In this document: positions 56,898 through 58,972 of the stretch, piece after piece
Numbering within the stretch: the stretch's first letter is position 1
How the letters are laid out: each line of letters begins with the position of its first letter
Assembly: GCA_017621525.1 (NCBI GenBank)
Contig: JAGASX010000014.1
Location: 13,232 to 77,231 of the forward strand
Length of the DNA stretch: 64,000 nucleotides
Source: Clostridia bacterium
GTDB taxonomy: Bacteria; Bacillota; Clostridia; Christensenellales; UBA1242
Reading direction: 5' to 3'
The notes under the pieces: model-generated
The model's input: the letters and a program-made list of their open reading frames with translations, nothing else
The model's database searches: none
Told to the model about the DNA's origin: nothing
Program-made: the position numbers and the translations under genes

Positions 56898-57407
56898 ATG
56901 AGTTTAAAAGCTAAACTTGTTTCTACTATCGCAGCGTTTTGTATGGTAATCTGCTTGCTTTCAGTAGGAATCTGGGCTGCTTCTACTGGTACAGTTAACG
57001 TTGGTGGTACTGTATCATTTACTGCTACAGACGTTGACGTAACTATTTACGGCGTAGTTGGCACTGCTGCTGCTGACGCTGAGGATATCACAACTGAAAT
57101 CGTTACATGGGATGCTGCATCTACAGGCGATACACTTACTGAAGATTGGACAAATGCTCTTAACTTCACTAAAGGTCAAGATATCGTGATTTCTCTTAAA
57201 GTTGTAAACAACAACGAGGAAAGAGCAGTTACTGTTACTCTTGTTGATGATGAAACTGCTGCAACTAACTACACTCACACTCCATCAGCTGGAAGCTCAA
57301 TCGCAGCAGGTCAATCTGCTGTTTACACAATCACACTTAAGGTAACTGATTGGAACAAGAAGGTTGAAGGAACACTTTCTTACGACCTTACTGTAACAAA
57401 CGGCTAA
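56898..57407 (+). CDS. Secreted 169-aa protein with a SipW-dependent-type signal peptide (TasA/CalY-style candidate fibre subunit), highly expressed codon profile
   Basis: AAAGGAGGT RBS. MSLKAKLVSTIAAFCMVICLLSVGIWAASTGTVNVGGTVSFTA. Codons are dominated by GCT/ACT/GTT/GGT/CTT as in tuf and rplU. A long terminator follows. Confidence 0.8.
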   Translation: MSLKAKLVSTIAAFCMVICLLSVGIWAASTGTVNVGGTVSFTATDVDVTIYGVVGTAAADAEDITTEIVTWDAASTGDTLTEDWTNALNFTKGQDIVISLKVVNNNEERAVTVTLVDDETAATNYTHTPSAGSSIAAGQSAVYTITLKVTDWNKKVEGTLSYDLTVTNG

Positions 57408-57440
57408 TAGTTGATTTAAGTAAATCCATTAACTTATAAA

Positions 57441-57510
57441 AATAATCTTGCATTGCACACCATACTGCAAATGGGAAACATCAGTTTTCCACCGCAAGAT
57501 TATTTTTTTT
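57441..57510 (+). terminator. Long-stem intrinsic terminator
   Basis: AATAATCTTGC ... GCAAGATTATT outer stem followed by T8. Confidence 0.75.
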
Positions 57511-57550
57511 GTTAAAAATTAAATAATTTCTTTAAAAGGTGTAATATCAT

Positions 57551-57580
57551 TTGACAATTCTTGCGCGAAAATTGTATAAT
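57551..57580 (+). promoter_or_regulatory. SigA promoter for the second TasA-like gene and sipW
   Basis: TTGACA (57551-57556), 18 nt, TATAAT (57575-57580). Confidence 0.65.
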
Positions 57581-57621
57581 GGGCTATAAAAAGGTGCAAT
57601 CTATAAAAAAGGGGGATTTGT

Positions 57622-58176
57622 ATGCGCAGAAAAACAAAACTGATAACCTCAATTGTGTTTATGGTGCTTGTCGCTATATTAACGGCATTGGGCATTTGGG
57701 CAGTTGTTGGTGGCGATATTGGCATTGGTGGCGACATCTCCTTTGAAGCACAAGAACTTGAAGTAACAATTTCCGGCTATATGTATGGTCATGATAAAAA
57801 TCATATGACAGAAGAAAATGCAGAACAACTTCCGGGGGATGAATTTGGCAAACAAGATGATTCAGAAATTGTTAAAAATAGTCTTGATTGGACAGGGCTT
57901 GACCTTGTTTTTGTAGACAAAAATGTTGACATAATCATTGAAGTTTTCATCACAAACAATCACTTAGATAAGGCTGTAAGGGTAAGTCCAAGCGACAAAA
58001 GTCAAACAGAAGGCAAAAACTTTTCTGTAACAATTGATTGCAGTGGCACAGCCACCAAAGACATAATCAGCGTTGGCGAAACAATCAACTACACAATCAC
58101 CCTTAAAATTCTTGATAAGGGAATGAAAGTTGATGGTATTCTGGATATTATTTTCAGTCTTACAAATGAAATTTAA
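57622..58176 (+). CDS. Secreted 184-aa paralogue with a SipW-dependent-type signal peptide
   Basis: MRRKTKLITSIVFMVLVAILTALGIWAVVGGDIGIGGDISFEAQELEVTIS. It shares W.GL.L.F, I.(I/V).N and YTITLK(I/V).D blocks with the 56898 and 39786 products. Confidence 0.8.
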   Translation: MRRKTKLITSIVFMVLVAILTALGIWAVVGGDIGIGGDISFEAQELEVTISGYMYGHDKNHMTEENAEQLPGDEFGKQDDSEIVKNSLDWTGLDLVFVDKNVDIIIEVFITNNHLDKAVRVSPSDKSQTEGKNFSVTIDCSGTATKDIISVGETINYTITLKILDKGMKVDGILDIIFSLTNEI

Positions 58177-58195
58177 GTAAAAAGGAGTAGTGGTT

Positions 58196-58972
58196 ATGGA
58201 ACAAAAACCAAGGACAAAATCGTCAAAAATAGTCAACATAATTTCAAACTGCATATTCATTCCCGTTATGATAATTCTTGTCGTTTATTTCATCTATTCA
58301 ATGAGCATTATCACCAAAAACGGCGTACCATCATTCTTTGGGCAATCTTATGTAAGAATTATGTCAAACTCGATGGTTCCAAGTGGATTTAAAAGAGGCG
58401 ATGTTGTAATTCTTGAAAAGAAAATGGTCTCTGAAATTGAGGTTGGCGACGTTATTGCTTTTTATTATTGTGTGGATGGTTGTCCAAACACCAATGGTAC
58501 AAGAGAAGAGGCTCTTGAAAATGACTTTAAAATAGGGCAAGAAACATTTACAACAACTATTTATTTTCATAAGGTATACAAAATAACATATGATAGTTAT
58601 GGCGATACTTGGTTCTATACATATGGTACAAACAACCTTAAAAGTTCCAACAGCGACCCGAATAGTGTTGATATTGAGGCAAATTATAAGGTAGACAAGG
58701 AAACACGTGGCGACCACGTAGTTGGTGTGTATAAAGAAAGTTGGCTTGCCGGGGTAATTCAATTTATTTCCAGCACACAAGGTATGATTATTTTAATCAT
58801 TGTGCCAAGTGCAATACTTTTGTTCACGCTTCTGCTTAACATAATCGAAATTGCCGACCAAATGATAAGGGAGAAAAAACAACAAAAAGCCCTTGCTGAT
58901 GGCGAACTTCTTGAACGTGAACTTGATGTAACCACAATCATTGAAGAACATGAAGATGAGGACGAAACATAA
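58196..58972 (+). CDS. sipW: Signal peptidase I, SipW/Sec11 (S26B, ER/archaeal) type with a C-terminal membrane anchor
   Basis: AAGGAG RBS. N-terminal TM helix. Ser box IMSNSMVPSGFKRGDVVILEK. His box region IYFHKVYKI. YGTNN lies in place of the KGDNN box. C-terminal TM helix IILIIVPSAILLFTLLL plus an acidic tail. Confidence 0.82.
   Translation: MEQKPRTKSSKIVNIISNCIFIPVMIILVVYFIYSMSIITKNGVPSFFGQSYVRIMSNSMVPSGFKRGDVVILEKKMVSEIEVGDVIAFYYCVDGCPNTNGTREEALENDFKIGQETFTTTIYFHKVYKITYDSYGDTWFYTYGTNNLKSSNSDPNSVDIEANYKVDKETRGDHVVGVYKESWLAGVIQFISSTQGMIILIIVPSAILLFTLLLNIIEIADQMIREKKQQKALADGELLERELDVTTIIEEHEDEDET

Follow-up and report, generated by a model that had tools for sequence, protein, structure and literature searches.

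The 64,000-nt stretch of clostridial DNA analyzed here (referred to as the window) carries, at 56898 to 58972, a set of genes that the evidence supports as an operon encoding a probable S26B (SipW/Sec11-type) signal peptidase together with two paralogous secreted proteins, one highly expressed (the "major" protein) and one "accessory." Both small proteins are built on an N-terminal module that also heads a 597-aa leucine-rich repeat (LRR) protein encoded at 39786 to 41579. We propose that these genes form a dedicated peptidase/cargo system of the SipW kind, with a new cargo family that would assemble on the cell surface, and we put the probability of this whole proposal at about 0.5. Its narrower part, that a dedicated peptidase and a cognate sorting signal serve an abundant family of surface proteins, is likely. 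The features of the operon are as follows.

56839 to 56868 (+): promoter-like site 5' of the major gene, TTGACA followed by a TGcTAAAAT/AATACT -10 region (10/12 match); putative function
56882 to 56889 (+): strong predicted ribosome-binding site (RBS) of the major gene, AAAGGAGG, 8 nt 5' of the ATG
56898 to 57407 (+): "major" module protein, 169 aa, with a leader (27 aa, 56898 to 56978), a conserved N-terminal strand (about residues 31 to 46) and a predicted Ig-like beta-sandwich body
57438 to 57512 (+): predicted intrinsic terminator or attenuator 3' of the major gene, a branched hairpin with a T-run
57551 to 57580 (+): sigma-70 consensus promoter for the accessory gene and the peptidase gene, TTGACA-N18-TATAAT (12/12)
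57622 to 58176 (+): "accessory" paralogue of the major protein, 184 aa; its leader diverges, it has an acidic insertion and its codon usage is ordinary
58196 to 58972 (+): divergent, probable S26B (SipW/Sec11-type) signal peptidase, 258 aa, with transmembrane segments at both ends of the catalytic domain and an acidic tail
58988 to 59014 (no strand assigned): bidirectional terminator-like hairpin at the operon end, found by sequence scan

The first-pass annotation of this DNA had described the gene order, a terminator after the first gene and an internal promoter, and all of these were present and nonrandom. The hairpin at 57438 to 57512 had a folding energy of -29.7 kcal/mol (z score of -5.7), equaled by none of 200 shuffled sequences, and a comparable hairpin with a T-run was found in 9 of the 11 intergenic regions scanned at this and related loci (the window counted), the exceptions being L008 and L009b. 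The promoter at 57551 to 57580 was the sole perfect match to TTGACA-N18-TATAAT in the 64-kb window, with 0.02 expected. The accessory gene and the peptidase gene are separated by 19 nt, and of the two candidate peptidase starts, a GTG at 58190 (260 aa) and an ATG at 58196 (258 aa), the ATG, located 8 nt after the RBS AAAGGAG, is most likely the one used. A search of the 720-nt region upstream with Rfam returned no known regulatory RNA, and the operon end gave terminator-like noise only.

The tuf-like codon usage attributed to the first gene was also borne out. Its effective number of codons (Nc) was 35.0 and the fraction of NNY codons ending in C was 0.67 (ACT, 17/28; GCT, 13/20; ATC, 8/10), resembling the tuf fragment at 55 to 855, identified by Pfam (Nc of 32.9; fraction of 0.73), whereas the accessory gene (Nc of 41.7; 0.33) and the peptidase gene (Nc of 43.3; 0.36) were ordinary. 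The operon sequence was found in sheep and bovine gut metagenomes, and part of the major gene was present in four bovine-gut metatranscriptomes, as RNA contigs of 603 to 637 nt with a word depth of 27.5 to 34.5, compared with a depth of 0 to 2 for the accessory and peptidase genes in the same runs. These contigs start at 56887 to 56889, directly downstream of the promoter-like site at 56839 to 56868, and stop inside the hairpin at 57438 to 57512. In these assemblies, the major-gene mRNA is thus short, well represented and monocistronic.

The same contigs revealed extensive variation between strains. They match the window through 56981 with one mismatch and rejoin it at 57415, and between these points they carry 487 nt of sequence that cannot be aligned to the 433 nt of the window. 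In a DNA contig from a further run (X10), the flanks were about 98% identical up to 57019, where the conserved strand ends, the body was replaced by 437 nt (395 nt in the window), the match resumed at 57415 and the accessory gene was about 90% identical. The leader, the N-terminal strand and the 3' hairpin thus remain about 98 to 99% identical while the body of the major protein differs between ruminant samples. The body diverges far faster than the leader, strand, terminator or neighboring gene, a cassette-like hypervariation. A short, well-represented mRNA together with a hypervariable body is what would be expected if the major protein were an abundant surface antigen or a phage receptor.

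The module common to the two small proteins and the LRR protein, also claimed in the first-pass annotation, was confirmed. True paralogy of the three N-terminal modules was clear from pairwise BLASTP (E values of 3e-17, 1e-21 and 6e-22; identity of 31 to 35%), and tblastn found exactly three copies in the window. Their motif blocks correspond to invariant alignment columns, namely, K.KL.S.I…G(I/V)WA…GG..SF.A, W…L.F, DI.I…NN and YTITLK..D. An exhaustive profile search yielded 2,879 representatives at 50% identity with E values of ≤1e-3, 1,198 of them with E values of ≤1e-10; a word-indexed search returned only 41 to 63 relatives, all unnamed and without a Pfam domain. Family members were called nothing beyond "hypothetical protein" in the sources checked. 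Among the 171 proteins retrieved, 105 were stand-alone (≤260 aa) and 66 were longer, and in all of them except P0042, a protein discussed below, the module begins within the first 20 residues and stops near residue 185.

The family leader has 27 residues, with the consensus MSLKAKLVSTIAAFCMVICLLSVG(I/V)(W/F/L)A↓A (the arrow marks the predicted cut). Conservation along the protein is highest here, with a mean entropy of 0.65 bits, compared with 1.26 for residues 28 to 46 and 2.0 to 2.6 for the rest. Its register is fixed, with Gly24 in 144/171 proteins, Val or Ile at -3, Trp, Phe, Leu or Tyr at -2, Ala at -1 and Ala or Val at +1; Ser accounts for 7 of the 15 listed exceptions to Ala at -1, and the start is exactly MSLKAKL in 62/171. 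The strand that follows has the family pattern TVN.GG.VSF.A.DV. Because of this conservation and fixed register, the leader reads as a family-specific sorting signal with a canonical signal peptidase I (SPase I) site predicted between residues 27 and 28. The SipW-cognate signal-peptide model (TIGR04088 type) gave no match to the three N-termini in NCBIfam at E values of ≤10, the presence of that model in the release being unconfirmed. Lipoprotein processing was considered and rejected, since the conserved Cys15 and Cys19 are inside the helix, without a lipobox.

The catalytic features of the peptidase are Ser59 in an SNSM box, His125 in FHKV and GTNN where GDNN is expected; Ser59, Met60 and His125 were invariant in 37 diverse relatives. 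In alignment with human SEC11A (7p2p), the Ser box SNSM corresponds to SGSM and the His box FHKV to VHRV, and in both single-sequence and profile searches of PDB sequences, SEC11A and SEC11C were the sole relevant relatives. The predicted general base is His and not the Lys of bacterial P-type SPases. The best NCBIfam matches were to TIGR02228 (archaeal-type SPase I; E value of 2.2e-10) and to SipW NF046067 (1.9e-8), followed by Pfam PF10502 (0.049), and these matches cover the N-terminal Ser box. Hydrophobic segments at about residues 12 to 40 and 196 to 219 bracket the catalytic domain in our reading of the sequence, and an acidic or low-complexity tail follows. The clade comprises about 100 clusters (102 relatives), nearly all unnamed, with one called "signal peptidase I" and a precomputed PF10502 match in 3/102. 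The protein is therefore probably an active, divergent S26B enzyme of the SipW/Sec11 type, as had been predicted, although the assignment is qualified by the profile scores and active-site box considered below. In the orthologues at L001, L005 and L008 to L012, a C-terminal tail of 150 to 250 aa, low in complexity and rich in Lys/Ala/Glu/Pro/Thr or in Arg, follows the second transmembrane segment; this tail is missing from the 258-aa peptidase of the window.

The gene arrangement was compared across ten independent loci: the window, three loci seeded from the module family (L001, L003/4 and L005/6), and six seeded from the peptidase, of which L007 to L010 are in named metagenome-assembled genomes and L011 and L012 in metagenomes. 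A metagenome scan with the peptidase alignment gave five loci. Scans with hidden Markov models (HMMs) showed at the locus level that all ten have one or two high-scoring major genes, then one low-scoring accessory paralogue, and then the peptidase, with the accessory gene ending 10 to 25 nt 5' of the peptidase gene at the loci examined. The linkage was the same whether loci were seeded from the module or from the peptidase, and the co-occurrence of module and peptidase thus held at this level. L003 is syntenic with the window, sharing PepF, a 775/793-aa protein and Lactamase_B upstream and a glmM-like gene, a hexapeptide transferase, SecG and RNase R downstream, while the neighborhood of L005 differs (ComEC, holA, Der, PlsY and SpoIVA). 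The unit therefore appears to move as majors, accessory and peptidase with no other conserved partner; no other conserved neighbor gene was seen at the loci examined, and the flanks near the operon lacked genes for sortases, chaperones and type IV pili.

The leader is nearly invariant in the major proteins but diverges in the accessory ones. The accessory leaders in the window, L003 and L007 still read …GIWA(V/S)…, while in L005 and L008 to L010 the helix ends in …G(V/I)xL(Y/F)(F/Y)V(I/L)(K/R/E)(D/E)R, without a small-x-small site. To judge from these sequences, the accessory proteins of the latter loci probably stay membrane anchored.

An upstream 488-aa open reading frame (ORF; 53575 to 55041) was considered as a further part of the system and set aside, as it recurs only in L001 and has no Pfam match. 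Compared with the syntenic L003, the window at 53575 to 56173 has a three-gene insertion consisting of this 488-aa protein, whose homologue lies upstream of the L001 operon, a DUF1828 protein and a DUF559 protein; the insertion may be a mobile or defense-type islet. Distant SipW-like peptidases were also observed at two further loci (L015, 7971 to 12755, and L014, 7863 to 14462), with two to three copies per locus interleaved with small unrecognized proteins that have NTYAVF or GTYAW at the end of the leader. They appear to be further uncharacterized SipW-cargo systems and fit a pattern in which each SipW has its own cognate cargo. Their cargo proved unusable as a TasA proxy for profile comparison, being recognized by neither Pfam nor NCBIfam.

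The structure of the major protein was modeled both at full length and as the mature form. The full-length model (predicted local distance difference test score [pLDDT] of 77.8) has a helix at residues 3 to 27 followed by about 12 strands, with the lowest confidence (54 to 58) at residues 21 to 40. The mature model (residues 28 to 169, from a 60-sequence alignment; pLDDT of 85.3, predicted template modeling score of 0.81) forms a compact sandwich with about 10 strands, the first of them in a long N-terminal hairpin. Both models were compared with the PDB by Foldseek, and the best 50 of about 1,000 weak matches were considered for each. The best matches of both were self-complemented FimA monomers (2m5g, 5lp9, 5nkt, 6erj and 6r7e; probability of 0.90 to 1.00, E value of about 1e-3), followed by generic Ig-like domains and CfaB; TasA was not among the best 50 of either. 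The weak Pfam matches of the module, to DUF7507, DUF1573, Ig_VWA7, TRAP_alpha and the DUF11 repeat, likewise point to a generic Ig-like surface-domain fold. On the basis of these models, we are confident in predicting that the body of the module is an Ig-like beta-sandwich without a close solved relative; the resemblance of the models to FimA is a weak structural lead only.

The LRR protein of the window consists of the following two regions.

39786 to 40322 (+): module (leader, strand and predicted Ig-like domain) as the N-terminus of the LRR protein (module HMM E value of 1.7e-36, residues 2 to 179)
40323 to 41579 (+): BspA-type LRR_5 passenger region of the same protein (PF13306 E value of 6e-81, in three stretches), without a C-terminal anchor

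Its identification as a BspA-type LRR protein was thus upheld, and the combination is the rule in the family: 47/50 long members consist of the module and LRR_5. Known BspA-like proteins are anchored by type IX secretion system C-terminal domains, lipid anchors, transmembrane segments or wall-binding domains. In contrast, none of the 50 long family members had a C-terminal transmembrane segment or an LPXTG-like motif, and the 169-aa major protein ends in …LTVTNG, without an LPXTG sorting signal. Since the fusions lack any other anchor, it is most likely the module that keeps the LRR proteins on the cell, by binding like modules. A 3,201-aa protein from the representative library, P0042, has a long cytoplasmic N-terminus, an uncleavable transmembrane anchor, six tandem modules, each spanning profile positions 30 to 180 and each with its own G.V.F..TDA.V strand, and a very long LRR_5 region. 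Read as a Rosetta-stone fusion, P0042 suggests a single physical arrangement made up of an anchored base, chained modules and an LRR region at the distal end.

The operon had been likened to tapA-sipW-tasA of Bacillus subtilis. As a comparison of logic this stood in part: a dedicated ER/archaeal-type peptidase is encoded alongside two secreted proteins, one major and one accessory (here paralogues of each other), the major is abundant, and the 27-residue leader has a G-x-W-A↓A-type end with a predicted cut between residues 27 and 28. As a statement of homology, "TasA-style" was not supported. No match to PF12389 (Peptidase_M73) was found at E values of ≤1 and none to TasA/camelysin in NCBIfam, and when PDB sequences were searched with a profile, no TasA chain appeared at E values of ≤10. 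A TasA-like fold was likewise unsupported by the monomer models and the Foldseek comparison, in which a compact Ig-like sandwich was obtained and TasA fell outside the best 50. TasA is a jellyroll of about 230 aa, while the module is predicted to be an Ig-like sandwich of about 140 aa with no sequence homology to it. Here, moreover, the peptidase is encoded last, the accessory protein is a full paralogue of the major, GTNN replaces GDNN and the module also heads LRR adhesins, whereas TasA is not known as an adhesin head.

The sipW-bsaA-bsaB-bsaC operon of Clostridium perfringens is similar in that it too pairs sipW with paralogous matrix subunits in a clostridium. However, intermolecular isopeptide bonds lock BsaA and BsaB, which are remotely homologous to TasA, and the operon described here lacks a vWA partner and has neither sortase nor type IV pilus genes nearby. 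Isopeptide locking is unlikely in the present family because the invariant columns of the mature domain hold no Lys. FimA, the chaperone-usher type 1 pilin, was the best, though weak, structural match, the module being modeled, like FimA, as an Ig-like unit with an N-terminal strand, and the LRR fusions would be in keeping with a FimH-like logic, in which an adhesin domain is joined to a domain of pilin type. Yet there is no sequence similarity to FimA, the adhesin here lies C-terminal to the module, the organism is a spore-forming relative of the Clostridia, and chaperone and usher genes are absent beside the operon, the neighbors being Lactamase_B, DUF559, DUF1828, glmM-like and hexapeptide-transferase genes. 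BspA-type LRR proteins share LRR_5 as the passenger of the 39786 protein and of the long relatives, but in this family a leader and a predicted Ig-like module occupy the N-terminus and none of the anchors listed above is present. A full-text literature search found no paper tying SipW-type peptidases to BspA or LRR proteins or describing the module. The logic of SipW with a major and an accessory protein is known. The novelty lies in the cargo fold, in the placing of the module at the N-terminus of LRR adhesins, in a peptidase clade with GTNN and in cassette-like variation.

TasA and the BsaA subunit of sipW operons assemble by N-terminal donor-strand exchange (PMC9674648; 10.1101/2024.11.04.621531), the donor strand of TasA being residues 28 to 38 (PMC9674648). 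In the model for BsaA, the leader holds the subunit, the N-terminal strand exchanges, and SipW cleaves after docking (10.1101/2024.11.04.621531). By analogy, we propose that preproteins with the fixed 27-residue leader are exported by Sec, that their conserved leader helix would keep them in the membrane, and that the operon's own S26B peptidase would cut them between Ala27 and Ala28, yielding a product of about 14 kDa, an Ig-like beta-sandwich headed by the conserved strand. Gene 1, from its own promoter and terminator, would provide the abundant, strain-variable major surface protein, and gene 2 a low-abundance divergent paralogue coexpressed with the peptidase. Since the accessory protein looks uncleavable in several lineages, it probably remains in the membrane as a base. 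The modules may then assemble on the surface into a fiber or array upon this base, for which the simplest chemistry would be N-terminal strand complementation as in TasA and BsaA, and the LRR proteins would coassemble, mounted through their own module. Both the module-module assembly and the LRR coassembly are inferred, as is cleavage by this particular peptidase. A fiber formed by strand exchange is a possible but doubtful form of the proposal. A bolder extension, which we regard as unlikely, is that this is a third kind of Gram-positive surface fiber, independent of sortases and chaperones, in which an anchored accessory base carries peptidase-released majors chained by strand complementation, the module serves as a universal plug for exchangeable BspA-type LRR adhesins, and the body varies cassette-like to evade recognition by phage or host.

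Several observations weigh against the proposal, and some of them favor its main rival, in which the leader is cleaved from a complete Ig-like spacer domain and no polymer forms. The small proteins would then be monomers, either secreted or loosely associated with the wall, the LRR proteins would be released or held by noncovalent wall interaction, and the peptidase would be a specialized processing enzyme. Both monomer models are complete sandwiches that fold the N-terminal strand back in cis, the weak Pfam matches are to generic Ig-like surface domains, and no solved fiber subunit matched closely: the FimA matches had template modeling scores of only 0.34 to 0.39 and root mean square deviations of 7 to 10 Å. 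A likeness of the strand to the FimA donor strand (TVNVGGTVSF versus TVNGGTVHF) did not survive searching, with no phmmer matches in the PDB and a BLASTP E value of 28 against a FimA sequence. In P0042, the tandem modules resemble a classical Ig-domain stalk, and because all six copies keep the strand, it may be just the A-strand of a complete Ig domain; P0042 equally shows that the module can act as an ordinary tandem Ig domain with the A-strand in cis. The cis strand itself, however, neither proves nor excludes exchange, because monomeric TasA also self-complements (PMC9674648), as do FimA monomers. What the absence of a polymer leaves unexplained is the top-level expression and strain variability of a 14-kDa stand-alone domain, the membrane-anchored paralogue that always accompanies the peptidase, and the retention on the cell of LRR adhesins without another anchor. 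We consider this a serious competitor, if a rather unlikely one.

The part assigned to the peptidase is also open to objection. A V/I-x-A site would equally fit ordinary SPase I, and the peptidase reached none of the curated cutoffs (40.6 versus 51.85 bits for TIGR02228, 34.1 versus 190 for NF046067 and 14 versus 22.9 for PF10502). The first Asp of GDNN is replaced by Thr in 27/37 relatives (TKGTSN; most of the clade has G-T-(S/N)-N), the canonical TKGDNN…D surviving only in the most distant ones, and the second Asp, about 6 residues downstream in most relatives, is moved to +9 by an insertion in the subclade of the window. The RNA evidence consists of assembled contigs of related strains, in which word depth is a rough guide to expression. 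A different possibility is that the leader is mostly a retained signal anchor, making most members type II membrane proteins with the module as a membrane-proximal spacer, of which the peptidase would shed a subset in regulated release. The helix is indeed far more conserved than a normal cleaved leader, and clearly uncleavable versions exist in P0042 and the accessory proteins of L005 and L008 to L010. Nevertheless, a small residue at -1 and Val or Ile at -3, the SPase I signature, are fixed in nearly all major and LRR-fused members, the catalytic Ser and His are invariant, and the allele boundary in the RNA contigs falls, at the nucleotide level, exactly at codon 27/28, so that this reading is improbable. 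Least credible of all is true, very divergent membership in TasA/camelysin (Peptidase_M73) with assembly exactly as in TasA. The SipW-type neighbor, the similar 27-residue leader and the conserved strand directly after the predicted cut, where TasA has its donor strand (PMC9674648), would suit it, but no Peptidase_M73 or TasA-chain match appeared at E values of up to 1 to 10, TasA was outside the best 50 fold matches of both models, and a plain Ig-like sandwich of about 140 aa contrasts with the roughly 230 aa of mature TasA.

For BspA-like LRR adhesins without LPXTG, SLH or wall-binding domains, it is mostly unexplained how Gram-positive gut anaerobes display their very large repertoires. The module, which has no Pfam domain, forms about 2,900 clusters at 50% identity. 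It is linked to a Sec11/SipW-type peptidase of its own, and those adhesins carry no other candidate retention device. If the module self-assembles, the principle of SipW with self-assembling cargo would reach beyond matrix fibers of the TasA fold to a different fold and to adhesin display, and two to three small proteins plus a peptidase would provide a compact unit for surface-display testing. Even without polymerization, the family merits a domain model, and the fixed 27-residue leader could be used as a surface-proteome marker for uncultured ruminant-gut Clostridia.

Several other features were noted in the window. A GC-rich palindrome, AAGCCTTCCCCGAAACCGGGGAAGGTG, which in some copies reaches 67 nt, occurs at 55563 to 55777, 56203 to 56231, 59036 to 59063 and 59107 to 59173. 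Its copies bracket the operon in inverted orientation, with 28-nt arms that are 100% complementary, and they look like a multicopy family resembling repetitive extragenic palindromic elements, since their contig depth in metagenomes was far above that of neighboring sequence; such elements might mediate rearrangements. Upstream of the major gene there is a tandem duplication (56326 to 56467 and 56535 to 56676) with a period of 209 nt, which holds a stem-loop, CCGGGGGAATCGCAACCCCCGG, and an AT-rich block and has no Rfam match. An A/T-rich segment of 37 nt at 56787 to 56823, 5' of the major promoter, matched many unrelated contigs in both RNA and DNA runs at depths of up to 128 and is either low-complexity sequence or a shared promoter-proximal element. 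Finally, a 1,378-aa ORF at 5016 to 9152 (+) has a codon bias as strong as that of tuf (Nc of 33.6), an ordinary Sec leader (…ANAIANA), a weak Big_13 match, a C-terminal transmembrane segment and a basic tail, and its product is probably another very abundant membrane-anchored surface protein, with a leader unlike that of the module family.

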